From NCBI GenBank assembly GCA_965279525.1, contig CBDIIB010000004.1, forward strand, positions 928,001-992,000: DNA of 64,000 bases, given 5' to 3'. Origin of the DNA: Tagaea sp. Lineage in GTDB: Bacteria; Pseudomonadota; Alphaproteobacteria; CACIAM-22H2. The notes under the pieces were generated by a model that saw only the letters and a program-made list of their open reading frames with translations, did not search any database and was not told where the DNA came from. The position numbers and the translations under genes were made by a program. Within the stretch, counting starts at the first letter, position 1. The number at the start of each line of letters is the position of its first letter. Of the stretch, positions 6,016 through 20,322 are shown piece by piece.

Positions 6016-6031
6016 AGAAAAGACTCCGTCT

Positions 6032-7210
6032 TTACTGTTTGAGAAGGCCGCGCTTGGCCAGGTTTCGATAAAGATGGCTCACGCCGAACATCCACGGCGG
6101 CGCCTTGTCGGACGTCGCGATCCTGTTCGTGAGCGCGCCGAGCTTGGATGCTGAAATCGTCACGATATCGCCGACCTTGTGCGTGAAGCCCTGCCCGGGC
6201 CCCTCGCGGTCCTGCACGGGTGCGAACATCGTGCCGAGAAAGAGAACAAGTCCATCCGGATACTGGTGGCTGGCGCCGATCGCCTGTCCGGCGATGTCCG
6301 CAGGATCGCGGCTGATCAGCTTGAGCGATGACATGCCCTCCATCCGGAAATTGTCTTCGCCTGCGACAACAAGCTCGACATCCATCCGGCGCACGTCGTC
6401 GAGCGTGAAGCTGCCGTCGAAAAGGCGGACGAACGGGCCGATCGCGCAGCTCGCGTTATTGTCCTTCGCCTTGCCAAGAAGCAGTGCCGACCTGCCTTCG
6501 ACATCGCGCAGGTTGACATCGTTGCCGAGTGTCGCGCCAACGATGCGGCCGGAAGACGCGATCACGAGAACGACTTCGGGCTCAGGATTGTTCCAGCGCG
6601 ACACCGGATGGATGCCGGCGGTTGCCCCCGTGCCGACCGACGACATCGGTTGCGACTTCGTGAAAATCTCGGCGTCCGGACCAATGCCGACTTCCAGATA
6701 CTGGCTCCACGCATTCTTGGCGATCAGCCACTCTTTCAGCTTTGCGGCTTCCGCCGAGCCGGGCTTCAGGCGCTGGAGATCGCCGCCGATCAGGTCGAGC
6801 ACTTCCTTGCGCGCGGCGGCGGCAAGTTCCGGTGCCCCGCGCGTGCGTTCTTCGATGACGCGTTCGAGCATCGAGGCGACGAACGTCACGCCGGCAGCCT
6901 TGACGGCCTGAAGGTCGATGGGGGCAATGAACCAGGGTTTTTTCGGATCGCGCTTCGCCTCGTCGCCGTTGGCGAGGAGAGCCTCCACCGTGCCGATCAA
7001 ATCGCCCTTCGCCTTTGCGAGCGCAGTAGCCGGGTCAGCCTGCTCGCACAGGTCGCGAACGGTCGGAAAGATCGCGGTCACGTCGACGACGTCGCCACCT
7101 CGGATCGCGACGACGCTGGGCCCGTCCGCCTCCGGTCGCCATACCCGCCCGACAAGTGTCGCCGTTGCGGAATCCTTCGGAAGTGTTCCTGAAAAATCGA
7201 TCGGTTTCAT
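6032..7210 (-). CDS. Fumarylacetoacetate hydrolase family protein, XylX-like 2-keto-3-deoxypentonate dehydratase
   Basis: WNNPEPE, GNDVNLRDVEGRSALLLGKAKDN, HQYPDG..LGTMFAP; start taken at MKPIDF. Confidence 0.8.
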   Translation of the reverse strand: MKPIDFSGTLPKDSATATLVGRVWRPEADGPSVVAIRGGDVVDVTAIFPTVRDLCEQADPATALAKAKGDLIGTVEALLANGDEAKRDPKKPWFIAPIDLQAVKAAGVTFVASMLERVIEERTRGAPELAAAARKEVLDLIGGDLQRLKPGSAEAAKLKEWLIAKNAWSQYLEVGIGPDAEIFTKSQPMSSVGTGATAGIHPVSRWNNPEPEVVLVIASSGRIVGATLGNDVNLRDVEGRSALLLGKAKDNNASCAIGPFVRLFDGSFTLDDVRRMDVELVVAGEDNFRMEGMSSLKLISRDPADIAGQAIGASHQYPDGLVLFLGTMFAPVQDREGPGQGFTHKVGDIVTISASKLGALTNRIATSDKAPPWMFGVSHLYRNLAKRGLLKQ

Positions 7211-7341
7211 CCCTCGCGGCCTCACAGTTTTGACAATCCGGTTCCAGGCTGGCGCAGTTGCCCCATACATCGCTTGCGCGCCAATGGCCATCTTCGTGGC
7301 TTTCCCAGCATCGAATATCAGGATTCAAGCTGCATTTCTTC

Positions 7342-7359
7342 GAAAATCGCATGATTTTC
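7342..7359. promoter_or_regulatory. Palindrome GAAAATC-N4-GATTTTC upstream of XylX-like gene, possible operator
   Basis: Perfect 7-bp arms in an AT-richer intergenic region. Confidence 0.4.
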
Positions 7360-7419
7360 AGTTTACTGGCGCATGCCGACGATAGCGGCAATGCGGCCCG
7401 ACCCAAGACGCAACTCCGC

Positions 7420-10335
7420 CTAGCGGAATCGCTCGATCCGGAAGGGTGTGACGTCGAAATCCGGATCGCGGCCGGCGATCAGCGATGCGGTAAGACGTCC
7501 CACGATCGGGCCCAGCGTATAGCCGTTGGAAGTGACGGCATTGTAGAAGCCGGGGACACCCGGGACTTCACCGACTAGCGGTGCACCGTCCAGATTTACA
7601 TTCATCGCCGCCCATCCGCGCAGGATGTTGTAGCCGTCGAGTGCCGGAACGACGCGTCGGGCAACCCAGAGATTTCCCTCAAGCGAGCCGCGCAGCACGC
7701 GCGGCAGGCCCGTGGCCGGTTCGGCCGCCGCCGTCCAGCCCCCACCGATGACAAAGCCGCCGGTGTCGGCCTGCTTGAGGGTCAAATGGCGGTCGGCATG
7801 TGCGACGAGTTGAGTGACGATCTTGGGACCCGGCGTCGTCACGACGATCTGGAGCGGTGCACCCTTGACCGGCACGTCAATGCCGACCATCCGGCCGATC
7901 CGCGGGCTCCACGGTCCGGCAGCGTTGACGATTCGCCGGCATTCGATATCGCCTCGCCCCGTCCGAACGAGAAACCCGCGCGACTTCCGCTCGATGGCGA
8001 TCACATCGGCGCCACTCCGGAATTGAGCACCATGTGCCTTGGCAAGCCGAACGACGGCATAGGTCGCAATCGCCGGATTGATCTTTCCCTCAAGCGGGCA
8101 ATAGGCCGCACCGACCAGTCGCTCGGAAAGCGCCGGAGCCAGAGACCGAAGTTCATTGCGCCCGATGACCTCGCATTCGACTCCATGGCTTCGCTCGAGA
8201 GCGACCTTCGCGGCAAGAAACGCCATATCTCGGTCGGTCTCGGCAACCATCAGGCCGCCAGTCGTCCGTATTTCCAGATCGATACCGGATGCATCGCCTA
8301 TCGAACGCCATAGCTCAATCGCAGCAGGGCCAAGGGCGAGCGTCTTGGCTGCAGGACCGCCGCCGGCCTGCGCCTTGGCCCCGAAGTCGAAAGAGAGAAG
8401 CTGTACATGCAGGCTTCCGGCATTGGCACCCGAGGCCTGAAGATTCGGCTCGTCGCGCTCGACGACGATCGTCTCGATGCCGGCCTGTGCGAGCGCCAAC
8501 GCGCAAGACGATCCGAGGATGCCACCACCGATAACAAGTGCATCTGTCGAGAGGTCCTCGCAATCAGACGCATGTGCAGACTGCGTGCGCTCGGCGATCG
8601 GCAACGGCGCTTCGACCTCCCGGTGCCCGCCCCATTCCGCTTGCTCGAACGCAAGTGCCGACAAGGGAACGGGCTTCGCCGGCACGCGTGGCGCAAACAG
8701 GTCGAATTCCCCCGGCAGACGCCCGGTCTTGGACTGGACAAACCTTGCGAGGGTTGCCGCACAGTTTCGCCCCTGGCAGCGTCCCATGCCGGCACGTGTC
8801 TGGCGCTTGACGGCGCCGAGCGACTGCTCGCCGTCCTCAAGGCATGTGCGGACGGCACCGGCTGTCACCTCCTCGCACCTGCAGACGATCGCGGAATCGG
8901 GGATCGCGGCCACGTCGAAGGGCGGCTGGCCGTAAATCCGCCATAGCACCTGCTGGAACCGGGTCGCCCCAGCAAGCGACCGGCGCGCACTTTCAATCCC
9001 GCCGATCGGCACGGATTTTCCGAGTGCTTCGCATACGGCAGCGCCTGCCAGAATTCCGCGAGCGATGGCAATTCGCGAACCACCGATGTCCGCACCGTCG
9101 CCGATCACATACACGCCGGGGACATTGGTTGCGCCGCAATCGTCTGTCTGTGCGGCAAGATAGCCGACATGCCGATCGACGAAACGGTGAGCCACACCAA
9201 GCTGCCGGGATATCTCGCTTGATGGGACAAATCCATAACCCATTGCGAGAACGTCGCCCGACAGGAGGCTTCCGTCATCAAGCCTTACTGATCCAAACGT
9301 TCCGACTGCATTCGCATCGATGGCCACGACCCGCCGCCCCCAGAGTACGGGAACGCCGGAAGCCTTCAGCCGTCGAAGCATGGAGACCCCGTCTCGCACC
9401 AGATCCGGCGCCGCCGCGAACAGCCGCAAAGCGTCCGGGAAGCTGCCGATTCCAGGTTGGTCCGCGACCTCGACAACCGCCACGACCTCAGCACCCCCCT
9501 CGATCAACTCGACGGCCGTCTGGATGTTGAGGGGACCGTTCCCTGCCACGATCGTCCGCCTCCCCGGCGCCACGCGATAGCTCCGCGCCAGCGTCTGCGC
9601 GGCACCCGTCGTCATGACCCCGGGGATCGTCCATCCGGGAACCGGAACGGGCCGTTCATAGGCTCCCGCGGCGATCACAACCCGTCGGGCGTTAAAGAGC
9701 ACCGCACGTCCATCCACGATTGCCGCTATCTCATCGACCGCGAATGCGCCCCAGACGACCGCGTCAGAGATGATCTCCACGCCAGCCGTTCGGACATCCA
9801 ACTCGAGTTCGGTGCCGGCGAGAAACTGCTTGTCCGCTCCGCCTTCAGCGAATGCATGCGACGGGCCCAGTGGCTTGAAATACTGCCCGCCCGGATGCGG
9901 GCGCTCGTCGAGCAGGATGACCGAAAGCCCGGCCTTGGCGGCGACCAGGGCGGCATTGAGGCCGGCGGGCCCTGCCCCGACGACGAGCAGATCGACCGCC
10001 CGTGCTTCCGGTGCCTCCGACGGCGGTGGGACAAGCGACTGCGGGTCGGCTGGGGCGTTCGACGATACCTTCATGCCGTCGACGACCTTGACGAGACAGG
10101 CACGCTGCTCCGGCCGGCCATCGACCGTCACGACACATTCGAAGCATGCCCCCATGCCGCACCACAGGCCGCGCGGCGCGCCCGATCTGGCGCTGCGCAG
10201 CGTCAGGATGCCGGCTGCAGTCAACGCTGCTGCGACGGTCTCTCCTTCGATCGCCGGTAAATCACGTTCGTCAAAGCGGAACGCAATGTCACGACCGACG
10301 GGCCGGACCCGTCGACTTGCAAGGCGAAGCTTCAA
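7420..10335 (-). CDS. Fused [2Fe-2S] + FAD/NAD(P) oxidoreductase + BFD-like Fe-S + DAO-family flavoprotein (HcnABC / opine or D-hydroxyproline dehydrogenase-like)
   Basis: CGMGACFEC..RAC; VGAGPAG; CRCEEV..GMGRCQGRNC; second IGGGILG and ASGANAG; 971 aa uninterrupted. Confidence 0.85.
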   Translation of the reverse strand: MKLRLASRRVRPVGRDIAFRFDERDLPAIEGETVAAALTAAGILTLRSARSGAPRGLWCGMGACFECVVTVDGRPEQRACLVKVVDGMKVSSNAPADPQSLVPPPSEAPEARAVDLLVVGAGPAGLNAALVAAKAGLSVILLDERPHPGGQYFKPLGPSHAFAEGGADKQFLAGTELELDVRTAGVEIISDAVVWGAFAVDEIAAIVDGRAVLFNARRVVIAAGAYERPVPVPGWTIPGVMTTGAAQTLARSYRVAPGRRTIVAGNGPLNIQTAVELIEGGAEVVAVVEVADQPGIGSFPDALRLFAAAPDLVRDGVSMLRRLKASGVPVLWGRRVVAIDANAVGTFGSVRLDDGSLLSGDVLAMGYGFVPSSEISRQLGVAHRFVDRHVGYLAAQTDDCGATNVPGVYVIGDGADIGGSRIAIARGILAGAAVCEALGKSVPIGGIESARRSLAGATRFQQVLWRIYGQPPFDVAAIPDSAIVCRCEEVTAGAVRTCLEDGEQSLGAVKRQTRAGMGRCQGRNCAATLARFVQSKTGRLPGEFDLFAPRVPAKPVPLSALAFEQAEWGGHREVEAPLPIAERTQSAHASDCEDLSTDALVIGGGILGSSCALALAQAGIETIVVERDEPNLQASGANAGSLHVQLLSFDFGAKAQAGGGPAAKTLALGPAAIELWRSIGDASGIDLEIRTTGGLMVAETDRDMAFLAAKVALERSHGVECEVIGRNELRSLAPALSERLVGAAYCPLEGKINPAIATYAVVRLAKAHGAQFRSGADVIAIERKSRGFLVRTGRGDIECRRIVNAAGPWSPRIGRMVGIDVPVKGAPLQIVVTTPGPKIVTQLVAHADRHLTLKQADTGGFVIGGGWTAAAEPATGLPRVLRGSLEGNLWVARRVVPALDGYNILRGWAAMNVNLDGAPLVGEVPGVPGFYNAVTSNGYTLGPIVGRLTASLIAGRDPDFDVTPFRIERFR

Positions 10336-11213
10336 AGTCGCGTCCCGTGCCAGCCGGCTTCGCGCTTGCTCCAGTAAAGTTCGTTGAGCTTGCGCGTGAT
10401 CGGTCCTGGAGCTCCACCGCGGACCATGCGGCCGGCGACCTCTCGCACACCGAGTGCCGCCCCGGATGTCGAGCAGGTAAAGACCTCATCGGCGACAAAC
10501 AGGTCGAACGCCGTTATGGCAGCACCCTCCACGGGAATGCGCAGCTCCTCCGCCAGATCGAAAAAGGTCCGACGGGTAATGCCGTGCAATACGCCGAGTG
10601 CGGGCGTCCGCAGCACGCCATCCTTGACGAGAAATACGTTTGAACGGGGCGCTTCCTCGACAAAGCCTTGCGCCGAAAGCCAGACGACATCGTCGAAACC
10701 GGAATCCAGCGCCTCGATCTTCGCGAGCTGATACTGCAGTCGCGCGGTGTGCTTGTATCGCGGGTCGAGCGTATCCGGTGCCATGCCGCGCTGATGGCCG
10801 ATCTGCAGCCGGATACCTTTCTCGCGCTGTTCCGGTGTTCCGAGGTGGGCATAGGGTGTGGCGAACGCCCGAACACTCGGCGTGGCCATCCGGGGATCGG
10901 TATTGCCCTGCTTCAGGAGACCACGCGTGACGATGATCTTGATCGCGGCGTCCTGCAGGTTGTTGCGCCGGGCGGTCTCGCAGACGACGGCACTCCATCT
11001 GTCCCGATCGAGGCCGGTCTCGATCCTTGCAGCATGCAGCGTATCGACGAGCCGGGCGACATGGGCCTCGAGCTGAAAAACGAAACCTTTCCATGCCGAC
11101 ACGACCTCGTAGACTCCATCGCCGAACTGGACGCCCAGGTCGAACGGAGAAAGTCGCGCCTGGCTTTCCGGAACATACGCACCGTCGCAGTAGAGAATGG
11201 GTTCGCTGGACAT
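10332..11213 (-). CDS. PLP fold-type IV aminotransferase (BCAT/D-amino acid aminotransferase family)
   Basis: FGDGVYEV, HVARL, PRYKH Lys, EEAPRSNVF, LHGITR, DEVF; start MSSEPI. Confidence 0.88.
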   Translation of the reverse strand: MSSEPILYCDGAYVPESQARLSPFDLGVQFGDGVYEVVSAWKGFVFQLEAHVARLVDTLHAARIETGLDRDRWSAVVCETARRNNLQDAAIKIIVTRGLLKQGNTDPRMATPSVRAFATPYAHLGTPEQREKGIRLQIGHQRGMAPDTLDPRYKHTARLQYQLAKIEALDSGFDDVVWLSAQGFVEEAPRSNVFLVKDGVLRTPALGVLHGITRRTFFDLAEELRIPVEGAAITAFDLFVADEVFTCSTSGAALGVREVAGRMVRGGAPGPITRKLNELYWSKREAGWHGTRL

Positions 11214-11230
11214 CGTTTCCGGTTCCTGTC

Positions 11231-12253
11231 TCAGGCGCCGCCGGTCAGGAAGCGGCGCGGATTGTCGCGCATAAGGGTGTCGATCTCGGCTGCGGTGAAC
11301 CCACGGTCGCGCATCAGCCCGGTGACGTTCGCCGGCAGATGTGCGTAGCCATGGCCGCCGAATGCGCCCAGACGGGTCCGTGTGCAAATGTCGTGCGACA
11401 GCAGCACGCGTCCGCCAAATCCTTCCGCAATGGCCTGCCGCACGTAGCGCAGGCGCATCCAGTCCGTCGGCAGGTCGGCGACCCCGAACCAGTAGTTCGA
11501 AGTCTCGATGCCGAAGAAGTCGAACTCGATCCAGCATCCGCGCGCCGCCAGGGCCGCTATTGAAGGAAAATCGAAATACGTCCGATCGACATGGCTTATC
11601 GCCACGCGCGCCGGGTCGGCCCCCGACCTTTCAAGAATGTCGAGGATCTCGTGCGGCGCGTCCGGATGGCGTCCCGGATGCACGTTGATCGACAGTCCGG
11701 TCCGGCGTTGTGCGATCGCAGAGGCCTCAAGTGACCGGCGCTCGAAATCGGCCAGCGGCCAACTGCAGCCGACCTCGCCGATCAGGCCGGCACGGATACC
11801 GGTTGCGAGAAAGCCCTCGCTTGCCTGGAGTTCGATCCGGTCGGCGAGCCACGCCACATCCCGCGACCGCGTGCCGGAATCGACGAAGTCTGCCGTGTAG
11901 AACCCGGCGCCGGCGACGATCGCCACGCCGGTCTTGCGCGACAGTTCCACAAGCCCGGCCGGATCCGGTCCGATTCCATCGGTCGTCAATTCGAAGATCG
12001 TGTTGCCGCCGGCCGAAGCGAAAGCGTGCAATTCGCCTTCCGCCACATCGCGCTGGGACAGTCGATGGTTGCCCTTGAATGCCGTCGGCCGGTAGGCGAT
12101 CGCGTGGGTATTCCCAAGGGTAATCTCGACGTCGCGAATTGCCGGGTCGCGAAGCGCAAGTGGCGTGACATCGCAAAGCACATGTTCGTGCGGAAGCACG
12201 AGGCCGAGCCGTGAAGCCGGCATTTCCCCGAGAACGGTCATTACCTTGGTCAT
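11231..12253 (-). CDS. Phosphotriesterase-related amidohydrolase (PTER-like)
   Basis: HEH, IGEVGCSWPL, VHPGR, SHVDRT, LSHDI, GGHGY binuclear-metal motifs. Confidence 0.88.
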   Translation of the reverse strand: MTKVMTVLGEMPASRLGLVLPHEHVLCDVTPLALRDPAIRDVEITLGNTHAIAYRPTAFKGNHRLSQRDVAEGELHAFASAGGNTIFELTTDGIGPDPAGLVELSRKTGVAIVAGAGFYTADFVDSGTRSRDVAWLADRIELQASEGFLATGIRAGLIGEVGCSWPLADFERRSLEASAIAQRRTGLSINVHPGRHPDAPHEILDILERSGADPARVAISHVDRTYFDFPSIAALAARGCWIEFDFFGIETSNYWFGVADLPTDWMRLRYVRQAIAEGFGGRVLLSHDICTRTRLGAFGGHGYAHLPANVTGLMRDRGFTAAEIDTLMRDNPRRFLTGGA

Positions 12254-12317
12254 GCCGCCTCGGGCCCGAATCCTGCACTTGCGAAGTGTCGCCTGTTGAC
12301 GACAGTATCCTCCCGAA

Positions 12318-12327
12318 TGTCATACAA
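12318..12327. promoter_or_regulatory. Putative GntR/FadR-type operator TGTCATACAA in a divergent promoter region
   Basis: Imperfect TGT..ACA dyad between divergent starts 12253 and 12340; TTGACG at 12296-12301. Confidence 0.45.
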
Positions 12328-12339
12328 CTGGCTTGGAAA

Positions 12340-13224
12340 ATGGCGAAGAAATTCCGCGGCACATTTACGGTCCTGATCACGCCTTTCAGCGATGACGGCC
12401 GGACAGTCGATCTCAAGGCGTTGACCGACCTCGTCAATTGGCAGATCGAGCAGGGCATTCACGGGCTTATCCCGCTTGGCTCGACGGGCGAGTTCCTGTC
12501 GCTGACGGATGCCGAAGCCGAAGCCGTCGCCGAGACGACAATCAAGGCGGCTGCCGGGCGCGTGCCGGTGCTGATCGGTACGGGTGCCGAGTTTACGGAC
12601 GAGTCGATCCGCCTTTCCCGGCGCGCCGAGAAACTGGGCGCGGACGGCGTGATGATCATCCCGCCCTTCTATTCGACTCCGACCGACGACGAGCTGTTCG
12701 TTCACTACCGGCGTATCGGCGAGGCCATCGGCATCCCGATCATGATCTACAACAATCCTGCGACGGCGAATGTCGACATGCGACCACCGACGGTCCAGCG
12801 GCTCAGCCAGATCGACAATGTCCGCTACATCAAGGAATCGACGCTCGAAGTGACGCGGGTCCGCGACATCATCGAGCTGTGCGGCGACCGGATGACGGTT
12901 TTCGCCGGAATCCTCGGATACGAGTCGTTCTGGCTCGGGGCACAAGGCTGGGTCGCCGTCTGCTCGAACCTGATGCCGAAGGAATCCGCGCGACTTTTCG
13001 AGCTTGTCGCCGATGCGAAAGACCAGCCGGCGGCACTCGCCGCCTACCGCCGCATGCTCCCGATCGTCCGTTGGGTCGGCGGGCAACGCTACGTCTCGGC
13101 CACAAAAGCCGGGTTCGCCATGATGGGGCGCCCGGTCGGGCCGCCACGCCCGCCCCGCCTGCCGCTGCCGGCCGAAGATGCCGCCGTCCTGCGGAAGGAC
13201 CTCGCCTCGCTCGGCCTTGTCTGA
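12340..13224 (+). CDS. DHDPS/NAL family lyase (not housekeeping DapA)
   Basis: GSTGEF, YNNP, Schiff-base Lys in YIKES; start MAKKF. Confidence 0.88.
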   Translation: MAKKFRGTFTVLITPFSDDGRTVDLKALTDLVNWQIEQGIHGLIPLGSTGEFLSLTDAEAEAVAETTIKAAAGRVPVLIGTGAEFTDESIRLSRRAEKLGADGVMIIPPFYSTPTDDELFVHYRRIGEAIGIPIMIYNNPATANVDMRPPTVQRLSQIDNVRYIKESTLEVTRVRDIIELCGDRMTVFAGILGYESFWLGAQGWVAVCSNLMPKESARLFELVADAKDQPAALAAYRRMLPIVRWVGGQRYVSATKAGFAMMGRPVGPPRPPRLPLPAEDAAVLRKDLASLGLV

Positions 13225-13237
13225 TCCGTTCCCCGGA

Positions 13238-14131
13238 TCAGCCGGCGGATTGGCCGAGATACCAATCGAGAATCTCCTCGCCCGTCCACATGACGACGTC
13301 CTTGTGGCCGAGAATGTGATCGTAGAGCTTTTCAAGATAGCCGATGCGGTGCGGAACGCCAGTCAGGTAGGGATGGATCGAGATCGCCATCACGCGCGGG
13401 ATGCTCGCACCCTCCAGATAGAGCCGGTCGAACTGGTCTCGTCCCCTGCGGAAAATCTCGTCGGACGGCTGATGCTGCAGTGCCGACATCATCACGTCGT
13501 TGATCTCGACCGTATAGGGGATCGACGTGATCTTGCCCGTGCGGGTGCGCATCGCGACGGGCTGGTCGTCCAGCACCCAATCGGCGACGTACTCGATCCC
13601 CGCTTCGGCGAGGAGGTCGAGGGTCTCGTCCGTCTCCGTCAGCCCAGGACTTTCCCAGCCGCGCGGCGGCCTGCCGGTGAACGCGCGGATTGCGGCGATC
13701 GTATCGGCAATGGCTCCTCGCTGGTCTTCGACCTTGTGCATGGGTTTTTGCACGAACCCGTGCCCCATGAATTCCCAGCCGGCACGCAGGGCCGCGGCAC
13801 AGGCTTTTTCGTAGACGCGGCAGGCCGAGCCATTGACCGCCATCGTCGCCTTTAGACCACGCGCCGACAGAACATCCAGAAAGCGCCAGAATCCGACCCG
13901 CATTCCGTACTCGTGCCACGACCAGTTCGGAACGTCGGGTAGCAGTGTCTGGCCCATCGGCGGCGGAACCACCGTCCGCGGCATCGGTGCCGTCGGACTC
14001 CAGTTCTCGACATTGACGATCGTCCAGACGGCGACCCGTGCGCCGCCCGGCAGCACAAGCTTCGGACGTTCCGTTATCGGCGAATAGCCGACACGGCCGG
14101 CGACAGTGGACCCAATCTGGAATTCGGTCAT
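13238..14131 (-). CDS. Polysaccharide deacetylase family (PuuE/allantoinase-like) hydrolase
   Basis: HEYGMRVGFWR, EFMGHG, PRGWESP, DDQP, SIHPYLTG. Confidence 0.85.
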   Translation of the reverse strand: MTEFQIGSTVAGRVGYSPITERPKLVLPGGARVAVWTIVNVENWSPTAPMPRTVVPPPMGQTLLPDVPNWSWHEYGMRVGFWRFLDVLSARGLKATMAVNGSACRVYEKACAAALRAGWEFMGHGFVQKPMHKVEDQRGAIADTIAAIRAFTGRPPRGWESPGLTETDETLDLLAEAGIEYVADWVLDDQPVAMRTRTGKITSIPYTVEINDVMMSALQHQPSDEIFRRGRDQFDRLYLEGASIPRVMAISIHPYLTGVPHRIGYLEKLYDHILGHKDVVMWTGEEILDWYLGQSAG

Positions 14132-14156
14132 CGTTGCGCCTTCCCGGCGAAAGGCG

Positions 14157-14187
14157 GGCGGCGCGGCGTATCAGGCGCCGCGCCGCC
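14157..14187 (-). terminator. Intercistronic stem-loop after SBP gene
   Basis: GGCGGCGCGGCG-N7-CGCCGCGCCGCC, perfect 12-bp stem. Confidence 0.55.
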
Positions 14188-14193
14188 GCCAGC

Positions 14194-15075
14194 TCATGCC
14201 GGCCCGGGCCCCTTGATGCCGAACTGCGTCATGGTGAGCTTCAGGACGCCATATTTGTCCATCAGCGCGTCGTAGAACCCGTCCTTCTTCATGTCGGTCA
14301 GAACGCCGGCGACGGTCTCGGCGAGCGGCTTGCTCGTGAACGCAAGGCAGGCCTCCTGCGCGAAAAGCCCGCTGACCGCACGCGTGAAGTCGCCCCGGGT
14401 CTGCATGAACATCGCCGTCGCGTCGGCGGCGGTCGTTCCTTCGACCTGGCCGGCGCGCAGGGCCTGGAACGCCTCGGAGAAGTTGTTGAACGAACGGACC
14501 TCGATCGCCTTCAGGCCCTTGGCGACGAGCATGTCGGACAGTTCCTTCGTGCGCCGCTCCTCGATCGAACCCTGCTCGCACGAGATGCGCTTGCCTGCGA
14601 AATCGTCGACCGTCTTGATGTTCTGAGGATTGCCGCGCTGCACGAGGATGCTGAGCGCGACGCCTTCGTAGGGCACCATGTACATAATTTTCGAGCGCTC
14701 TTCGGTCCAGAAGATGCCGGTATTGATCATGTCCCAGCGCTTCGCGGCCAGGCCCGGTATCATCGTCGTCACGCCATCGATGCGGAAATACTCGGGAACC
14801 AGGCCAAGACGCTTGGCCGTCTCGTTGCCGAGTTCGGCACGCAGACCCTGGATCTCGCCCTTGTCGTTGATGAACTGCAGCGGCGGCAGCGTCGGATTGA
14901 TCGACATCATGAGCGTACCCGCCTTGATGATGACGGGCGGAGCCACCTTCGCCTGCGCACGTGCGGCACGCGGGATCTGGGTGGCGGCGACAGCCGCACC
15001 GGCGCTGGCAAGGAGCCAGCGACGGGTCAGCCCGTTGCCGTTCGCGATTGTGCGGGCGGGGCGTTTGCTGGTCAT
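14194..15075 (-). CDS. Polar amino-acid ABC substrate-binding protein with Tat signal
   Basis: LTRRWLL..ARA signal; PPLQF, MIPGLAAKRWD and ALRAGQVE family-3 SBP motifs; GGGAGA RBS. Confidence 0.85.
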   Translation of the reverse strand: MTSKRPARTIANGNGLTRRWLLASAGAAVAATQIPRAARAQAKVAPPVIIKAGTLMMSINPTLPPLQFINDKGEIQGLRAELGNETAKRLGLVPEYFRIDGVTTMIPGLAAKRWDMINTGIFWTEERSKIMYMVPYEGVALSILVQRGNPQNIKTVDDFAGKRISCEQGSIEERRTKELSDMLVAKGLKAIEVRSFNNFSEAFQALRAGQVEGTTAADATAMFMQTRGDFTRAVSGLFAQEACLAFTSKPLAETVAGVLTDMKKDGFYDALMDKYGVLKLTMTQFGIKGPGPA

Positions 15076-15151
15076 CTTGTGTCTCCCGTTGAAGTGATAG
15101 TCGGCGTGACGGACGCCGGCCGAGCGGAATTGAGCAAGTTTGGTGCCAGCC

Positions 15152-16087
15152 CTAGGAGGCGCTTTTCTGGAGAAGCCCACCTGCGGCCAGGATGCCCCGG
15201 AGGGCATCCAAAGCCGCGGCATCGTCGATGGGCAACAACGGCGGCCGCGTCCAGCCGCCGGGCTGCCCCAGCATGTTCATCGCCGCCTTGATCTGCGACT
15301 GCGGAGAGCCAAATCGGCCACTCCAGTCCGGGTTGATCAGTTGCCCCATGATCGCGGCATAAGTCTCGGCGTGGGCAAGGGCGGCCTTCGTGTCGCCGCG
15401 CCAATGCGCCTCGTAGAAGGACACCGCGTACTGACCGGCAACGGCACCGCCGTCGATGGATCCGTCACCGCCCATCGTCCGCAAAAGCGCGTAGCCCAGG
15501 CGGTTCGCGAAGCCTCCGAATACCCGCAGCTTGTCGCCGACCTCTTCCAGGGTGCGGATTGCCTGCAGGCGGTTCGTCGTGCTGTCCTTCAGTGCCACCA
15601 CGCGATCGATGCGCGCCAGTTCCGCCGCCGTTTCCCACGTGATCTCGACCTGCGTGCCGCGCGCCCAGTTGTAAACCATCAGCGGCAGGTCAACCGCTTC
15701 GCAAACGGTGCGGAAAAAGGCGACGATCTCGCGCGAGGTCGGTGCCGCATAGGGCGGCGGCGTCGACAGCACGCCGTCGGCACCAAGGCTGCGGGCGTGA
15801 AGTGCCAATTCGATCGTCTGCCGGGCGGTATAGGTCGTGCAGCCGATCACGACCGGAATCTTGCCCTTCAGTTCCTCGACGGCGATCTCGGCAACGCGCT
15901 TGCGCTCTGCGTCGGACTGGGAAAACCACTCTCCGGTCGTGCCGTTGACCAGCACGCCATGCACGCCCATCTTCAGATAGTGGCGAAGCCCCGCCCGCCA
16001 GGCCGCCTCGTCTACCGCGCCATCGCGGGTGAAAGGCGTGGGTGCAGCGACCCAATAGCCCTTCCAGTCGACGTCATTGCGGTCCAT
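15152..16087 (-). CDS. DHDPS/NAL family lyase
   Basis: GTTGEW, VYNW, ALKDS Schiff-base Lys. Confidence 0.87.
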   Translation of the reverse strand: MDRNDVDWKGYWVAAPTPFTRDGAVDEAAWRAGLRHYLKMGVHGVLVNGTTGEWFSQSDAERKRVAEIAVEELKGKIPVVIGCTTYTARQTIELALHARSLGADGVLSTPPPYAAPTSREIVAFFRTVCEAVDLPLMVYNWARGTQVEITWETAAELARIDRVVALKDSTTNRLQAIRTLEEVGDKLRVFGGFANRLGYALLRTMGGDGSIDGGAVAGQYAVSFYEAHWRGDTKAALAHAETYAAIMGQLINPDWSGRFGSPQSQIKAAMNMLGQPGGWTRPPLLPIDDAAALDALRGILAAGGLLQKSAS

Positions 16088-16138
16088 CTCCGGAACTCCG
16101 ATCGCTGGCCGAATTCGTTGAATGTATTGAGTAGGTAA

Positions 16139-16984
16139 CTATTGTAGGCCGTCGCCCGGGAAATCAAGGGTCGCCTGGTAGCCATTTCCGCTCAAGTTTG
16201 AGGCCCGACGTGCCGCTGCCTCGCGCTGTGCAGCCAATGCAGCGGCATCCATGTCTGACGTAGGACGCGGTTCCGGATCGAAATGTCCGAACGCATCGTG
16301 GCCGCGCACAAGCATTGCCGATTCCCGCCCCCGGAGCTGCCGCACATGGGTCGGAACGAAGCGTGCAGCGATGCCGATCCGCGATTGGGTCCATCGGTTC
16401 GGCGCCGACGAATGCAGCGCCCGCGTATGGTGGAAAACAGCCTCTCCGGCACTAAGAACGGCTTCGATAGCCCGGCCTTCGTCGACACCACGGGCAATCT
16501 GCCCGCTATGGAGCAGATTGTCCGGATGCGGTCGAAGATCGATGGGATAGCGTTCCGCCGAATGGCTGCCGGGAATATACCGGACCGGCCCGCTTTCGGA
16601 GGGCACGTCGCTGAGCGCGATCCAGGCCGTAACCTCCGTCGGCGGATCGAGGTGCCAGTACGTGTCGTCCTGGTGCCATGAAATATATTTACCCGTGCCG
16701 GCCGGCTTATCGAAGAGCTCCGTCGACCAAAGCAGGAAGTCCGGCCCGATGATGTCCTCAACTGCATCAAGCAGTCGTGCGTCATGTACCAAGGCGTCCA
16801 CCCAGGTCAGCAGAAGGTGGATCTTCTGCGTACGGCTGCCGGTAAAGGATCCGAATTTTGCCTGACTTGAAAAGTAGCAGCCCCGATACCGCTCGGCTTC
16901 TGTCGTATCGAGAACTCGTACGGGAAAAAGGAACCCGTCCGCTTGGTATCGCGCAAGCTCGGCAGGCGTCAGCTTCCTGTGCAC
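16139..16984 (-). CDS. Phytanoyl-CoA dioxygenase (PhyH) family Fe(II)/2-oxoglutarate dioxygenase
   Basis: WHQD, AWIAL, PGSH, LHSSAPN..R. Confidence 0.88.
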   Translation of the reverse strand: MHRKLTPAELARYQADGFLFPVRVLDTTEAERYRGCYFSSQAKFGSFTGSRTQKIHLLLTWVDALVHDARLLDAVEDIIGPDFLLWSTELFDKPAGTGKYISWHQDDTYWHLDPPTEVTAWIALSDVPSESGPVRYIPGSHSAERYPIDLRPHPDNLLHSGQIARGVDEGRAIEAVLSAGEAVFHHTRALHSSAPNRWTQSRIGIAARFVPTHVRQLRGRESAMLVRGHDAFGHFDPEPRPTSDMDAAALAAQREAAARRASNLSGNGYQATLDFPGDGLQ

Positions 16985-16996
16985 GGGCCAATTCCC

Positions 16997-17803
16997 TTAA
17001 AGTCGGATCGAAGCGGCACGATGTCGCAGCGGACCGAGCGCCGACCAGGCCGTGTAGTCGGCGCAGTCCTCGATCGGGTCCGGATCGGTACCATCGATGA
17101 ACAGTCGGCAGTGTCCCGGCGTTGCCCAGATTTCCAGCTCATGTCGGGTCACCTGGCCGACGGGATCGGCGAACAGCTCGACCTCCGTGCGCTCGAAACC
17201 CAGACCGGCAAGCGCGATGCCGACGGAAAGGTTCAGGTTGCGCGGAAAATGGCGGGACAGATCGCGCACCGATCCGCGCAGGATCATCGTTTCTCGTTCA
17301 ATCTTGTCGAGATCGACGAGCGATGCCGCAGCGTTCGCACGCCAAACCCGGAGCGGTTTCGCCGTCCTGTAGACGATCCGGGAAAGGCCGGAATCACGTG
17401 CCGCAGCGACCAGATCAAGCGTACCGATCGCGCCCGGAGCGATGAAGACCTTTCCCGAGCCTGGCTGCCCGCTCGCATGCCGCAGCCGCTCAAGGACCTT
17501 CTCGTCCAGCAGGGCGCAAAGCGAGAGCGGGACAAGGTCGATTCCGCGAGCGACGATCTGATGGCCATACTCGGCCAGCGCTTCGGGACTCGCACATTCA
17601 AGGACGATTTCGGGCCGCCGGTCGAAAAACTCGGACAGCAAGGCCGTCGAACGAAACGGTCCGCCGTTGCGGGTCAGGACCGCGACGAGTTCGGCGTCCG
17701 GGCCGAGATTGGCTGCGACGCGCGCGCCGATCTTGCCCCAGCCCACGATCCCGACGCGGGTCGGCCGGACAGCACAACCGGCACCGGCGTCAACGATCGT
17801 CAC
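16997..17803 (-). CDS. L-aspartate dehydrogenase-like protein (divergent); start uncertain
   Basis: VGIVGWGKIG, LECAS, PGAIGTLD, FPRNLN, RHELE; GTG start overlapping the permease end assumed. Confidence 0.72.
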   Translation of the reverse strand: MTIVDAGAGCAVRPTRVGIVGWGKIGARVAANLGPDAELVAVLTRNGGPFRSTALLSEFFDRRPEIVLECASPEALAEYGHQIVARGIDLVPLSLCALLDEKVLERLRHASGQPGSGKVFIAPGAIGTLDLVAAARDSGLSRIVYRTAKPLRVWRANAAASLVDLDKIERETMILRGSVRDLSRHFPRNLNLSVGIALAGLGFERTEVELFADPVGQVTRHELEIWATPGHCRLFIDGTDPDPIEDCADYTAWSALGPLRHRAASIRL

Positions 17804-18500
17804 GCGCCAACTGCTTGGTTTCGACGTTGCCAAGCGGCTTGGCATAGTGGGCCTCGATACGGCGTTGGACAAAGTCCCAACAGGTCGTCATCGCGAGATA
17901 GATGATCGCCACCACGAGGAACACCTCGAGCACGTCGAAGCGCTGCTGCATGAGGCTCTGGCCGCGCCGCATCAGCTCTTCCATCGAGATCACCGACGCG
18001 ATCGAAGTGGTCTTGAGCAGTCCGTTCACCGAGTTGCCCAGCGGCGGGATGATGACGCGCAGTGCCTGCGGCATGACGACGAGCCAGAAAATCTGGAAGC
18101 CGCTGAGTCCAAGGGAACGGGCCGCTTCGGTCTGGCCTTTCGGAACGGCAAGAATGCCGGCGCGCAGGATCTCGGAAAGGTAGGCTGCCTCATTGAGCGC
18201 AAGACCGATAAGCGCCGACTGGATGACCGACAGTCGGATTCCGAACTGCGGCAACCCGGTATAGATGATGACCAACTGCACGAGCAGCGGCGTGCCGCGG
18301 AAAATCCAGACATAGCCGTGCGACACCATCTGCAGTGTCTTGTATTTCGACATCCGCAGGACGGCGATGAACAGGCCCAAAATGAGGCCGAAAAACAGGG
18401 TGATGACGGTGAGCGCAAGGGTCCAGAGCGCCCCCTCGAGCAGGTATAGGTTGGTGAAATAATTGAAGAATCCGGCCCAGTCGAACTTCATTTTCTCCAT
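17790..18500 (-). CDS. Polar amino-acid ABC permease (His/Glu/Gln/Arg/opine family)
   Basis: FRGTPLLVQL, SEILRAGI, GQTEAARSLG, LKTTS. Confidence 0.92.
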   Translation of the reverse strand: MEKMKFDWAGFFNYFTNLYLLEGALWTLALTVITLFFGLILGLFIAVLRMSKYKTLQMVSHGYVWIFRGTPLLVQLVIIYTGLPQFGIRLSVIQSALIGLALNEAAYLSEILRAGILAVPKGQTEAARSLGLSGFQIFWLVVMPQALRVIIPPLGNSVNGLLKTTSIASVISMEELMRRGQSLMQQRFDVLEVFLVVAIIYLAMTTCWDFVQRRIEAHYAKPLGNVETKQLARDDR

Positions 18501-18636
18501 CCCCTCGCACGCGGCAGCGCTTCAGTCTGCAAGTTTCGTGCGATAGGGGATGTTGTAGCCCGAAATCGGCGGCGGCGGGCAAACGGCTTTGAAATACTCG
18601 AAACCATCTGCCCGCCGGGCACCGCATCGCATCGTC

Positions 18637-19467
18637 TCAAGGCCGCAAAGGCGCCTTCCAGTTTTTCAGGCTGCTGAAATCGGCCGTGTACTCGGCCGAA
18701 GCGAACGTTCCGCCCTGATAGAAATCTCCGACGGGTTCGGCGGCGATCGCCGCCTGTCCTGCCTTGGCTGCTGCTAGCTGCCCTTCCGAGTCGTGTTTGG
18801 GACTGTAACCAAGTTCGTGCGCACGCCGGTTGTCCCACCAGGCGCGCTTGTTGGCGGACGCGCCATAGAGCACCTCGAAGACGATGTCGGGATGGTCGAG
18901 ACCGATCCGGATCAACTGAACGAGATCCTCGGGATGCAGCATGATCGCCATCCGGCGCATGTCGAGCGGCGTCTCGTTCACATTGCCGATGCGAAGGCAT
19001 GTCACGCGGAGGCCGTGCTTCATCGCGTACATCGCGCCAAGCGCTTCGCCGAATGCCTTGGAAACGCCGTACCGGCTGTCGGGGAGGACCGTCACGTCAT
19101 GCGGAATCTTCGTCGTGCGCGGATAGTATCCGACCGCATGGTTCGACGAGGCGAAGATCACCCGCTTCACGCCCGCCGCACGCGCGGTCTCGAACAGGTT
19201 GTAGCAGCCGACGATATTGGCATTGAGGATCGACTCCCAGGGCCCCTCGACCGAATAGCCGCCCAAATGCACGATACCGTCTATTCCGGCGACCGCCGCG
19301 GCCGTCTCCGACACGCTGGCAAGATCCGCCTTGACGAATTGCAGCCCGTGCAGATCCGCAGGTGCCTTCAGGTCCGACAGGACGAGTTCGGGATAGGCAG
19401 CCTTCAACATCGGCGTGATGCGCCGCCCGACATCGCCCGCAGCTCCGGTCAGCAGAACTCTTTTCAT
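18637..19467 (-). CDS. udh: NAD-dependent epimerase/dehydratase family, probable uronate dehydrogenase
   Basis: LLTGAAG, ASSNHAVG, PDSRYGVSKAFGE, WWDN..A.ELGY characteristic of Udh. Confidence 0.78.
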   Translation of the reverse strand: MKRVLLTGAAGDVGRRITPMLKAAYPELVLSDLKAPADLHGLQFVKADLASVSETAAAVAGIDGIVHLGGYSVEGPWESILNANIVGCYNLFETARAAGVKRVIFASSNHAVGYYPRTTKIPHDVTVLPDSRYGVSKAFGEALGAMYAMKHGLRVTCLRIGNVNETPLDMRRMAIMLHPEDLVQLIRIGLDHPDIVFEVLYGASANKRAWWDNRRAHELGYSPKHDSEGQLAAAKAGQAAIAAEPVGDFYQGGTFASAEYTADFSSLKNWKAPLRP

Positions 19468-19526
19468 CGATTCTCTCTCTTCCGATCTGAAACGCACGGC
19501 CACCAGGCCGGATTTCCGCATGCGGC

Positions 19527-20315
19527 CTAGGCGGCTTCGCTGGCCTTTGCCGATCCTGAAAACTTGCGATAACGGGCGGCCGCGCGCGTAAGGTGCTCGC
19601 GCATCGCCATGCGCGCCGCGTCGGCGTCCCGCGCCACGATCGCCGCTTCGATGCGGGCGTGCTCGTCGAGTATCCGCGCGAGGTACTCCGTCTGGCGCGA
19701 CATGGTCATGTTCCAGACCCGCTTGTCCTGTCGCGGAATCACGAATGTGCCGAGAAACCGCAGGAATTCGGGAAACTGCGGATTGCCGGTTGCCGTCGCG
19801 ATGGCGACGTGGAACGCGAAATCCTCGTCAGCACCGGAATCGCCCCGCCCGATCGCCTTCGCGAACTCCGCGTGCGCCGCGCGCACGGCACGCATTCCGG
19901 CAGCCGAGGCGCGCTCGCAAGCCAGTCCGGCCGCTTCCGTTTCGAGCGCCTGGCGCAGTTCGAGGACATCAATGGCGGAATCTAGCGAACGCAGGATTTC
20001 GGGATCCAGCTTGAACGAGCGGCGCGGCGGAACGGTGCTCACGAACGCACCCGATCCCTGCCGTGTCGTCACGAGCCCCCTCGCCTTGAGGGCCGCAACG
20101 GCCTCGCGAACGACCGTGCGGCTGACCTTCATTGCCGAAACCATCTCGAGCTCGGTCGGCAGACGCTGTCCTGCGGTCAAGCGCCCGCTTGAGATCTCGT
20201 CCGTGAGCCGCGAGACCACGGCTTCGGTGAGGTTGCGCGTCGGCTTCACCGGCGTGAGGATTTCCGGTTCGCGTCGAGCCTGCGATTCCGATCTAGACTT
20301 TTGTTGTCGGGTCAT
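19527..20315 (-). CDS. FadR/GntR family transcriptional regulator
   Basis: LPTE..VSRTVVREA..RQGSG HTH; FCD domain DFAFH..N. Confidence 0.9.
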   Translation of the reverse strand: MTRQQKSRSESQARREPEILTPVKPTRNLTEAVVSRLTDEISSGRLTAGQRLPTELEMVSAMKVSRTVVREAVAALKARGLVTTRQGSGAFVSTVPPRRSFKLDPEILRSLDSAIDVLELRQALETEAAGLACERASAAGMRAVRAAHAEFAKAIGRGDSGADEDFAFHVAIATATGNPQFPEFLRFLGTFVIPRQDKRVWNMTMSRQTEYLARILDEHARIEAAIVARDADAARMAMREHLTRAAARYRKFSGSAKASEAA

Positions 20316-20322
20316 CGTACAA
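20311..20322. promoter_or_regulatory. Putative FadR operator GTCATCGTACAA overlapping the regulator start
   Basis: GntR-like motif at the divergent FadR/dctP junction. Confidence 0.45.

Follow-up and report, generated by a model that had tools for sequence, protein, structure and literature searches.

Flavoenzymes of the D-hydroxyproline/opine dehydrogenase (HcnABC-like) family act on D-hydroxyproline and on opines (PMC4575208, in its accessible part), and a sponge PTER that hydrolyses N-acetyltaurine has been presented, with apo and product-bound structures, in the available part of a 2026 preprint (PMC12873775). Here we describe a locus of Tagaea sp. in which relatives of both proteins are encoded close together. 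The stretch of DNA analysed, hereafter the window, comprises 64,000 nt (positions 928,001-992,000 of contig CBDIIB010000004.1, assembly GCA_965279525.1), and the ten genes in question are located on a variable block that we name the island (Table 1). The chances appear to be about even that this island is a remodelled copy of a widespread and undescribed catabolic module, which would import, unmask, oxidise and split a masked amino acid. For the core of this module, consisting of an ABC importer, a PTER-type amidohydrolase, an M20-family protein, a single-chain HcnABC-type dehydrogenase, a DHDPS-like enzyme, DUF3830 and a GntR regulator, we tentatively propose, at slightly less than an even chance, an undescribed and widespread pathway for masked D- or imino acids.

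The original prediction had described the ten genes as a genuine cluster of catabolic character. In agreement with this, when long open reading frames (ORFs) were compared with Pfam and NCBIfam and scored against the curated cut-offs, all ten proved to be intact ORFs matching the corresponding Pfam family. The placement of one gene had to be corrected, however: the second DHDPS-like lyase is present, and it is encoded on the + strand (DHDPS-like 2, Table 1), not by the opposite - strand ORF at 12250-13335, which has no match in Pfam or NCBIfam. All island genes but one are co-directional, and neighbouring genes overlap or are separated by gaps of less than 100 nt. Family scans of the ORFs in the block revealed neither an ABC ATPase nor a regulator. 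The prediction also knew of no characterised pathway with this combination of genes; our literature searches, which did not extend to most subscription journals and supplements, likewise found no description of it.

Alignment of relatives of the PTER-like protein gave 547 confirmed loci in species-representative genomes, and the best 80 of these 547 were analysed. Because the 80 loci were picked by likeness to the PTER-like protein, the counts given below reflect how frequently the PTER-like gene is linked to the core, and not how abundant the core is. Related genomes among the 80 loci are not independent, the identity thresholds used to call orthologs were chosen by us, and genes in foreign loci were called with a crude picker based on third-position G+C combined with tblastn, so that genes may be missed. 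A locus was counted as a core locus when it encoded, together with the PTER-like protein, a fused flavoenzyme of at least 40% identity and a DHDPS-like 2 protein of at least 45% identity. Both were present in 26 of the 80 loci, and in 22 of these 26 their genes are less than 260 bp apart. The 26 core loci further contain the permease (24), the binding protein at 40% identity or more (23), M20 (22), an ABC ATPase (16), DUF3830 (12), the AspDH-like enzyme (11), DUF6282 (7), a dihydropyrimidinase (6) and the fold-type IV aminotransferase (3). Of the co-occurrence that the original prediction called for, the part concerning binding protein, permease, PTER-like protein, DHDPS-like 2, fused enzyme and, often, the AspDH-like enzyme was recovered in many unrelated genomes, whereas the full set was recovered in one relative only. 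The grouping exceeds chance for part of the gene set. Gene content, island status, core conservation and gene order are read directly from the genomes compared.

The core loci are distributed over Alpha-, Beta- and Gammaproteobacteria (Rhodospirillales, Hyphomicrobiales, Rhodobacterales, Comamonadaceae and Acidiferrobacteraceae). Among the carriers are Tagaea, Stappia, Rhizobium, Agrobacterium albertimagni, Prosthecomicrobium, Methylocystis, Jiella, Ahrensia, Tropicimonas, Maritimibacter, a metagenome-assembled genome of the Inquilinaceae, Hydrogenophaga and a member of the Acidiferrobacteraceae, and their habitats are soil, fresh water and sea. The most compact arrangements are single operons (L093 and L104) that contain, in this order, genes for GntR, M20, the binding protein, permease, ATPase, the PTER-like protein, the DHDPS-like enzyme, the fused enzyme and DUF3830. 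An operon lacking the PTER-like gene is present on plasmids p3 of Azospirillum brasilense (L128), pAU20b of Aureimonas sp. AU20 (L129) and pAt of Agrobacterium vitis (L130), in the order GntR, GntR, binding protein, permease, DHDPS-family gene, fused FAD enzyme, ATPase, hydA, DUF3830. The fused enzymes of these plasmids are 44-55% identical to that of the island, and the operons are annotated only generically. When a plasmid collection was searched with the PTER-like protein, only seven distant matches were obtained (37-46% identity). In the genus itself, an ortholog of the PTER-like gene is present in 9 of the 20 genomes sampled, and it is a single-copy gene in the genome studied here. A divergent second version of the core combines a PTER-like gene with a distant DHDPS-like gene, unfused Pyr_redox_2 and DAO genes, the same type of ABC importer, DUF6282 and a GntR/FCD regulator. 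In the Prosthecomicrobium hirschii locus, an IS110-family transposase gene (L057:12040-13413) is situated between the PTER-like gene and the DHDPS/fused-enzyme pair.

A quick tree of the PTER-like proteins tracks this context: 30 of the 32 core-linked proteins fall in one group of 34 rows, and a clade apart from it, with 40 rows and support 98, is made up of those linked to the AT3 family, to a PuuE-like gene only or to other contexts. In L062 (Paraburkholderia), and with family members in 11 loci that include L063, L067 and L079, the PTER-like gene is accompanied by a class-III aminotransferase and a TetR regulator, without the dehydrogenase-lyase pair. This context would fit an omega-amine product, as with PTER. 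Five Paraburkholderia/Caballeronia rows (L062, L067, L079, L083 and L092, the labels of the last two being provisional) form a clade of their own in the quick tree.

To delimit the island we used blastn against the sister species G019 (locus L121). DNA homology stops at window position 7222 and restarts at 18633, which places the borders of the island close to those that had been predicted. The backbone is 90% identical to G019 on one side (window 3002-7222) and 83% identical on the other (18633-23346), and the block is absent between them. The order in G019 is GFO, aldehyde dehydrogenase (ALDH), FAH, 3.8 kb, SDR, GntR and DctPQM, and the 3.8 kb at the site consist of unrelated genes (ArsR, AHSA1 and a sensor kinase). 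What was inserted into the conserved backbone is a mosaic. Neither flanking repeats nor mobile-element genes were detected at the borders of the island. G019 has its own copy of the core, located 1.6 Mb away from this site. A sugar ABC system adjoins this copy, and the orthologous system of the genome studied here (C4:38972-43309) has no core beside it. The island and the G019 copy are 74.8% identical at the DNA level, and in the quick tree the PTER-like protein of the window clusters with that of Telmatospirillum ahead of other Tagaea copies (support 90). We read the island as a probable horizontally placed, related but foreign copy at a new site, the original having been lost; it may alternatively be a fast-evolving copy that was translocated.

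Directly downstream of the fused enzyme gene, and in the same orientation, the backbone encodes an FAH-family protein and an alpha-ketoglutarate-semialdehyde dehydrogenase-like protein (KGSADH). By its structure match, the former is a relative of the 2-keto-3-deoxy-arabinonate dehydratase of Sulfolobus. Homologs of FAH that are 65-94% identical are present in 13 of the 20 same-genus genomes, and in five loci of the genus (G019, G011, G018, G007 and G009) the FAH and ALDH genes are direct neighbours, none of these loci having an adjoining island. On the other flank, the order SDR, GntR, TRAP transporter is the same in G019, where these genes adjoin FAH/ALDH without the island. Literature searches on the structures nearest to the FAH protein and to the island-encoded PhyH protein (9KKT/9KKV and 6ZYK/6ZYL, respectively) found no paper.

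The domains of the fused flavoenzyme are arranged in the order Fer2_4 (2Fe-2S), Pyr_redox_2 with BFD/SO_alpha_A3, and DAO. All three components of the D-hydroxyproline/opine dehydrogenase (HcnABC-like) family are hence found by Pfam, in order, on one chain, and this gamma-alpha-beta order is that of the D-hydroxyproline/opine dehydrogenase, hydrogen cyanide synthase and sarcosine oxidase type. Other loci likewise encode it as one fused ORF, of 959-1014 aa. Among solved structures, it best matches 4ysh, a glycine oxidase, and 1y56, a Pyrococcus complex of which both chains are matched, and the gene is present in single copy in its own genome.

Given this enzyme family, the locus might be a variant of the hydroxyproline route. 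DHDPS-like 2 would then be a pyrroline-4-hydroxy-2-carboxylate deaminase and the fused enzyme a single-chain D-hydroxyproline dehydrogenase; the adjoining ALDH would make 2-oxoglutarate from alpha-ketoglutarate semialdehyde, and the hydrolases would free (hydroxy)proline from N-acyl or peptide forms. Indeed, the fused enzyme equals in domain content the D-hydroxyproline dehydrogenase of the accessible text of PMC4575208, with its gamma, alpha and beta subunits. Moreover, a DHDPS-family gene is adjacent in 22 of the 26 core loci, DUF3830 travels with the core, a KGSADH-like gene and a dehydratase gene making the same semialdehyde are located just downstream in the window, and OCD-family genes accompany the core in six loci. 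The OCD family includes, judging from paper titles, pyrroline-2-carboxylate reductases. We nevertheless consider this variant improbable. A Pro_racemase-family gene (hydroxyproline 2-epimerase) is present in none of the 80 loci and is absent from the island, and at C4:165989-169331 the genome possesses a canonical cluster of DHDPS, DAO and Pro_racemase genes accompanied by a GntR/UTRA regulator. The DHDPS protein of that cluster shares just 33% identity with DHDPS-like 2 over 138 residues. In addition, the KGSADH neighbour belongs to the backbone and not to the island, and core loci elsewhere lack an aldehyde dehydrogenase. The canonical cluster (L142, outside the window) has an Fe-ADH gene alongside and holds the only Pro_racemase member of the genome.

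The same enzyme family brings opines into consideration. According to this explanation, an N-(carboxyalkyl) amino acid, possibly imported as its lactam, would be opened by a hydrolase and then split at the secondary amine by the fused enzyme into an amino acid and a 2-oxo acid, in the manner of OdhABC, Oox and Nox. The three components recur in flavin opine dehydrogenases, which adjoin ABC importers of the polar-amino-acid type (PMC4575208, accessible part). Two-gene homologs on Ti plasmids are 31% identical to the fused enzyme, the aspartate-type dehydrogenase of the island would suit an aspartate-derived opine, and the Methylocystis locus (L059) has an arginase and an OCD-family gene beside the core. 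Arginase plus OCD is the classical follow-up to arginine-derived opines. However, an arginase gene is present in just one of the 26 core loci, the match found elsewhere being no better than 27%, the identity to the plasmid opine oxidases is low, and most carriers are free-living bacteria of water and soil. Opine cleavage needs no DHDPS-like enzyme, yet this is the most constant partner of the dehydrogenase. An opine-type substrate therefore seems distinctly improbable.

Neither of the two DHDPS-like proteins, which share 33-35% identity, reaches the cut-off of the dapA model TIGR00674 (206.15 bits): DHDPS-like 2 scores 197 bits and DHDPS-like 1 143.1 bits. The I/L-K-E/D-S motif, which holds the Schiff-base lysine in the DHDPS superfamily, is present in both proteins (YIKEST and ALKDST). 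The aspartate-semialdehyde-binding arginine of DapA, which we take to be Arg138 in E. coli numbering, has no counterpart in DHDPS-like 2: with the register set by eye, the protein reads IYNNPATANV and has Thr at the expected place. Its best match among solved structures is 3na8, which corresponds to PA0223, the only protein to which a literature search on this structure led; PA0223 lacks DHDPS activity and has Arg138 among its variable positions (PMC3281039, available portion). A further DHDPS-family paralog, 27% identical to DHDPS-like 1, is encoded elsewhere in the window (33505-34410, + strand).

The near miss of DHDPS-like 2 at the dapA cut-off is one of two observations that would suit a biosynthetic role, such as a side branch of lysine/diaminopimelate synthesis or a small natural-product pathway using a DapA-like enzyme, an aminotransferase and a hydroxylase. 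The other is that PhyH enzymes take part in many natural-product pathways, and the solved relatives of the island protein include CytC3, SyrB2, SnoK/SnoN and MysH. Such a role is in our view extremely unlikely. The block encodes an importer, several hydrolases and a dehydrogenase of the dye-linked type, GntR/FCD regulators are present in relatives, and family scans of the block found no synthetase, ligase or exporter. The YNNPATA stretch at the expected Arg138 position and the lack of DHDPS activity of PA0223, the closest solved relative of DHDPS-like 2 (PMC3281039, same portion), argue in the same direction.

The PTER-like protein matches PF02126 with 212.7 bits (cut-off 22.4). Its closest solved relative is 9efa/9efb, "phosphotriesterase-related protein", which aligns end-to-end (E 3.9e-78), followed by the Rsp3690-type structure 3k2g and Pmi1525. 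The original prediction of PTER likeness is borne out by this end-to-end alignment, although it does not extend to all of the active site. The available part of PMC12873775 highlights Tyr131, Arg209, His305, Tyr69 and Phe270 in the active site and substrate channel of the sponge PTER. We infer that 9efa is this sponge PTER, since all five named residues fit the numbering of its chain when shifted by two. When read by eye with this +2 offset, three of the five residues highlighted in that part of the preprint are kept (Tyr131 as Y119, Arg209 as R195 and Phe270 as F256) and two are changed (His305 to C290 and Tyr69 to T57). C290 is invariant in 25 aligned relatives. Residues 1-57 of the PTER-like protein fall outside the alignment with E. 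coli PHP. Taken together, the protein is PTER-like and has kept an anion-binding arginine; given the two changes among the five residues named in the accessible text, its substrate is likely to differ from N-acetyltaurine.

As to transport, the "Tat" binding protein named in the original prediction could be confirmed: translation is likely to begin at an internal Met, after which LTRRWLLASAGAAVAA forms a signal of the twin-arginine type that includes a TRRWLL motif. The closest named NCBIfam models of the permease are cystine and ectoine permeases, both below cut-off. An ABC importer made up of binding protein, permease and ATPase is not complete on the island, which lacks the ATPase; candidate ATPases encoded elsewhere in the genome are 51-57% identical to that of locus L053. 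Unlinked homologs of two other core members are located on contig C5, namely M20 (60% identity, C5:685094, near paralogs of binding protein and permease) and DUF3830 (68%). The C5 region concerned (C5:676163-686386, L127) is a second cluster of amino-acid type and encodes a SBP_bac_3 protein and a permease that are 50% and 59% identical to those of the island, an unassigned 385-aa ORF, a D-2-hydroxyacid dehydrogenase, a TRAP system and the M20 deacylase, which is 60% identical to the M20 of the G019 core.

The remaining island enzymes could be assigned to families with less precision. The PuuE-like protein scores 119.5 bits against the allantoinase model TIGR03212 (cut-off 424.6) and matches the PuuE allantoinase structure 3cl6 with E 6.2e-24. 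It thus belongs to the PuuE fold family without being an allantoinase ortholog. A search of its own genome gave seven matches, the protein itself and six paralogs. The PhyH protein reads WHQDD, i.e. it has the H-x-D metal motif rather than His-x-Ala/Gly; H-x-D/E as opposed to H-x-A/G separates Fe(II)/2-oxoglutarate hydroxylases from halogenases. Its best NCBIfam match, "chlorinating enzyme", is far below cut-off (62.9 vs 226.3 bits), and its best match among solved structures is the unannotated 6zyk (E 7e-48). Two PhyH paralogs of 39-42% identity are encoded at window 49729-50526 (- strand) and, past the window end, at 994269-995072 of contig C4, the latter with one in-frame TGA in our search. 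The best curated model for the AspDH-like protein is NF009828 (160.5 bits, cut-off 177), and its matches among solved structures are 1j5p/2dc1. Structure searches with the binding protein, M20 and the AspDH-like protein returned generic relatives only. The aminotransferase probably starts at MSSEPILY (~11213), 18 nt past the stop codon of the PTER-like gene, which is consistent with the 299-306 aa of its relatives. It remains below the cut-offs of PRK08320 (212 vs 363), ilvE_I (174.3 vs 245.55) and PRK06680 (141.1 vs 320), and is present at 40% identity or more in 4 of the 80 loci; a relative of 28% identity adjoins the fused enzyme in genome G034.

Around the dehydrogenase-lyase pair, accessory enzymes are exchanged between loci. 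The hydrolases that replace one another are a dihydropyrimidinase/D-hydantoinase (above its NCBIfam cut-off, 706.5 vs 647), DUF6282 and, in the window and G034, the PuuE-like protein. The M20 protein is of the ArgE/DapE type, below cut-off. DUF6282 is taken for an amidohydrolase because of its HxH motif and of His/Asp columns that are invariant; its match to the PTER-like profile is weak (hhalign probability 9.6%). Similarly, the AspDH-like enzyme (11 of 26 core loci) and an OCD/mu-crystallin-like protein (6 of 26) never occur together, and L065 adds a PanE/ApbA-type reductase. These exchanges of hydrolases and NAD(P)H enzymes suggest two roles that would be filled by different families, amide or ring opening and reduction of a 2-imino or 2-oxo acid. 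The proposal that the substrate is an N-acyl or cyclic amino-acid-like compound fits the travelling of M20, dihydropyrimidinase/D-hydantoinase, DUF6282 and PuuE-like families with the core. For DUF3830, which we take to be cyclophilin-like, literature searches (most subscription journals being outside their reach) found no description.

Table 1. Positions of the island, its genes and the flanking backbone genes in the window.
Feature	Position	Strand	Evidence
Variable block (island) holding all ten genes, 11.4 kb	7223-18632	.	blastn vs G019
Polar-amino-acid ABC permease	17790-18500	-	BPD_transp_1 PF00528 E 1.6e-26; TIGR01726 103.6 bits vs cut-off 42.2
AspDH-like NAD(P) enzyme	16997-17872	-	Asp_DH_C 6.1e-15 + NAD_binding_3
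PhyH-family Fe(II)/2-oxoglutarate dioxygenase	16139-16984	-	PF05721 2.6e-28
DHDPS-like 1 Schiff-base enzyme	15152-16087	-	PF00701 3.5e-49
Family-3 solute-binding protein	14194-15078 likely (ORF 14194-15222)	-	SBP_bac_3 PF00497 7.2e-22
PuuE-like polysaccharide-deacetylase-fold hydrolase	13238-14131	-	PF01522 9.7e-11
DHDPS-like 2 Schiff-base enzyme	12340-13224	+	PF00701 7.8e-64
PTER-like binuclear-metal amidohydrolase (phosphotriesterase family), 340 aa	11231-12253	-	PF02126 1e-62
Fold-type IV aminotransferase, ~293 aa	10332-11213 likely (ORF 10332-11537)	-	Aminotran_4 4.3e-46
Fused flavoenzyme, 971 aa	7420-10335	-	Fer2_4, Pyr_redox_2 + BFD/SO_alpha_A3, DAO
FAH-family 2-keto-3-deoxypentonate-dehydratase-like, backbone	6032-7291	-	PDB 9kkt E 5.3e-132; 2q18 KdaD
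Alpha-ketoglutarate-semialdehyde-dehydrogenase-like (KGSADH), backbone	4567-6015	-	GucD model 538 bits vs 770
SDR, backbone	18637-19521	-	Pfam
GntR/FCD regulator, backbone	19527-20393	-	Pfam
TRAP transporter DctPQM, backbone	20446-23356	+	Pfam

The claim of the original prediction that did not survive is that of a single conserved pathway of ten genes. In most genomes searched, the PhyH, PuuE-like and DHDPS-like 1 genes have no conserved link to the others, and the block is a mosaic. The full ten-gene set is found only in the species of the window and in a near-identical sister species (~93% identical; G012, loci L031/L041), with protein identities of 88-99%. The PuuE-like, PhyH, DHDPS-like 1, FAH, ALDH, SDR and backbone GntR genes each accompany just one of the 26 core loci, namely that of the sister species, and DHDPS-like 1 at 45% identity or more occurs among the 80 loci only in L041. 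PhyH, DHDPS-like 1 and the PuuE-like protein are hence lineage-specific additions. Further PhyH homologs (44-47% identity) in 11 genomes have no cluster gene nearby. Of ten neighbourhoods of PuuE-like homologs (43-69% identity), that of G012 has the full set and that of G034 a part of it, and the other eight share nothing else; the six homologs of 59-69% identity were the ones read as orthologs, and clustering of the neighbourhoods revealed no neighbour family of any kind in common.

These distributions could mean that the island combines two or three unrelated functions, in which case the core would be one unit and PhyH with DHDPS-like 1, as well as the PuuE-like protein, independent passengers. 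In line with this are the restriction of the full set to two species, the isolated PhyH and PuuE-like homologs, the paralogs of the genome itself (six for PuuE-like and two for PhyH) and an uneven third-position G+C, which is low in the PhyH (0.65), fused enzyme (0.71) and AspDH-like (0.73) genes and higher in those of the binding protein (0.84), DHDPS-like 1 (0.81) and the permease (0.81). A collection of unrelated functions is nonetheless unlikely in our opinion. The tight co-directional packing of all genes but one speaks against it, and so does genome G034, from another genus (locus L038, G034:C66), in which PhyH, a PuuE-like protein (54%) and a fold-IV aminotransferase are again joined to a PTER-like gene, two DHDPS-like 2 genes and the fused enzyme. 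Moreover, a PuuE-like gene (55-56%) lies within ~5 kb of a PTER-like gene in three Methylomirabilota/Verrucomicrobiota loci, though these represent one related lineage. In locus L038, the stretch from PhyH to PuuE-like also encodes an acyl-CoA dehydrogenase, a CoA-transferase and a MaoC dehydratase, a hint that a released acyl group may be degraded there.

Several observations weigh against the reading of the island as a remodelled catabolic module, in addition to the altered PTER residues and the narrow distribution of the full set. Since PhyH, DHDPS-like 1 and PuuE-like have no conserved linkage in most genomes searched, their membership in one pathway with the core is a guess. The island lacks M20, DUF3830, the ATPase and GntR, which most core loci carry, and this version may therefore be incomplete or work differently. 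No island enzyme exceeds any curated NCBIfam cut-off, so none can be named as the ortholog of a characterised enzyme, and statements on substrates rest on family likeness and neighbourhood. An ALDH of at least 50% identity is present in one of the 26 core loci only, and a semialdehyde product fits poorly with core loci lacking this enzyme. The family-3 binding protein argues against uncharged ring compounds. Finally, scans of the island for promoters and terminators yielded nothing exceeding the shuffled expectation.

If the island is indeed such a catabolic module, we envisage the following route, each reaction and substrate of which is deduced from protein relationships and gene neighbourhood. 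A small anionic or zwitterionic amino-acid derivative would enter via the Tat-exported binding protein and the permease, with an ATPase supplied from elsewhere in the genome. This masked amino acid (N-acylated, N-carbamoylated or ring-closed) would be unmasked by the PTER-like and PuuE-like metal hydrolases, a task that in relatives may involve the M20 ArgE/DapE-type deacylase together with the dihydropyrimidinase/D-hydantoinase or DUF6282. The fused 2Fe-2S/FAD enzyme would next oxidise the C-alpha-N bond of the freed amino or imino acid, which in this lineage might alternatively be transaminated by the fold-IV aminotransferase. DHDPS-like 2, acting as a deaminase/dehydratase or as a retro-aldolase, might then convert the 2-imino or 2-oxo acid to pyruvate or alpha-ketoglutarate semialdehyde; reduction to the L-amino acid by the AspDH-like enzyme would be its other fate. 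PhyH and the second DHDPS-like protein would have been added in this species, perhaps feeding a non-hydroxylated analogue into the same route, and the block would have landed just upstream of a semialdehyde dehydrogenase gene.

As to the class of substrate, we favour a derivative of a D- or imino (proline-like, N-substituted) amino acid. This flavour is suggested by the substrates of the dehydrogenase family, as far as its source is accessible, by the D-hydantoinase-type partner and by the fold-IV aminotransferase and OCD-type partners. The sulfonated and opine-like substrates suggested by the original prediction are guesses. We assign a low probability to ectoine-like cyclic amidines, to N-acyl-homoserine and to a conversion of orotate, dihydroorotate or carboxymethylhydantoin to aspartate. 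The same holds for breakdown of meso-diaminopimelate by reversal of DapA/DapB, against which the missing counterpart of Arg138 speaks, and for cyclic dipeptides, against which the charged-ligand binding protein speaks.

If correct, these proposals would describe a nutrient pathway that nobody has named, distributed over Alpha-, Beta- and Gammaproteobacteria and plasmids of Azospirillum, Aureimonas and Agrobacterium vitis. They would provide a first physiological role for bacterial PTER homologs, for the fused dehydrogenase and for DUF3830 and DUF6282, and would link the bacterial relatives of PTER, a protein of current medical interest, to a single-chain D-hydroxyproline/opine dehydrogenase and these two families. 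The window would then show the core rebuilt by gene swapping, with a PuuE-like protein in place of the hydantoinase and with a hydroxylase and a second lyase added. The swaps of hydrolases and of imine/2-oxo-acid reductases around a fixed dehydrogenase-lyase pair constitute a clear and testable case of modular pathway evolution, and several carriers are culturable, which makes the substrate question directly answerable. Should this reading fail, what remains is an accessory island of the ordinary kind, made up of paralogous catabolic genes. It is chiefly the conserved core that is of interest; the "pathway" of ten genes is lineage-specific and partly mosaic.

How, then, does the locus compare with described systems? 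It resembles the bacterial D-hydroxyproline branch in the 2Fe-2S, Pyr_redox_2/BFD and DAO components, the adjoining DHDPS-family gene, the polar-amino-acid ABC importer and the GntR regulator. It differs from it in the single 971-aa chain, the lack of an epimerase gene in the 80 loci, the constant presence of PTER-like and M20 hydrolases as core partners and the separate canonical cluster in the genome. With OdhABC, Oox and Nox and their occ/noc-type importers (PMC4575208, accessible part) it shares the enzyme family and the kind of importer, and the C-A-B gene order given there for Burkholderia thailandensis is the domain order of the fusion. The 31% identity to the Ti-plasmid proteins, the extra hydrolases and DHDPS-like partner of the core, and the fact that no opine synthase-like gene was seen set it apart.

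A likeness to hydantoin utilisation and the reductive pyrimidine route is given by the dihydropyrimidinase/D-hydantoinase of 6 of the 26 core loci and of the three plasmid operons, with M20 deacylases alongside, and by the PuuE-like protein of the window, whose fold is that of the second allantoinase type, which is not homologous to the first. However, the core has no nitrilase-type or AmaB-type carbamoylase, its M20 proteins are of the ArgE/DapE type and below cut-off, and neither the dehydrogenase nor the DHDPS-like enzyme plays a part in the known routes. The two backbone genes downstream of the island resemble the tail of a Weimberg-type pathway (2-keto-3-deoxypentonate dehydratase plus alpha-ketoglutarate-semialdehyde dehydrogenase), but this pair is vertically inherited and present in relatives without the island, to which its link is positional only. 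Eukaryotic PTER is an amidohydrolase of N-acetyltaurine and N-acetyl-beta-alanine, according to the available parts of PMC11374699 and PMC13311154. The window protein resembles it in its full-length alignment to 9efa and in possessing the stretch missing from bacterial phosphotriesterases such as E. coli PHP; it differs in having Cys and Thr as counterparts of the His305 and Tyr69 highlighted in the accessible part of the sponge PTER preprint, and in its genomic partners, which point to an amino-acid-like and not a taurine substrate. In summary, the individual proteins are of known kinds, namely hydroxyproline/opine dehydrogenases, hydantoin-type hydrolases and PTER, whereas their combination, the single-chain form of the dehydrogenase and its constant PTER-like partner are undescribed.

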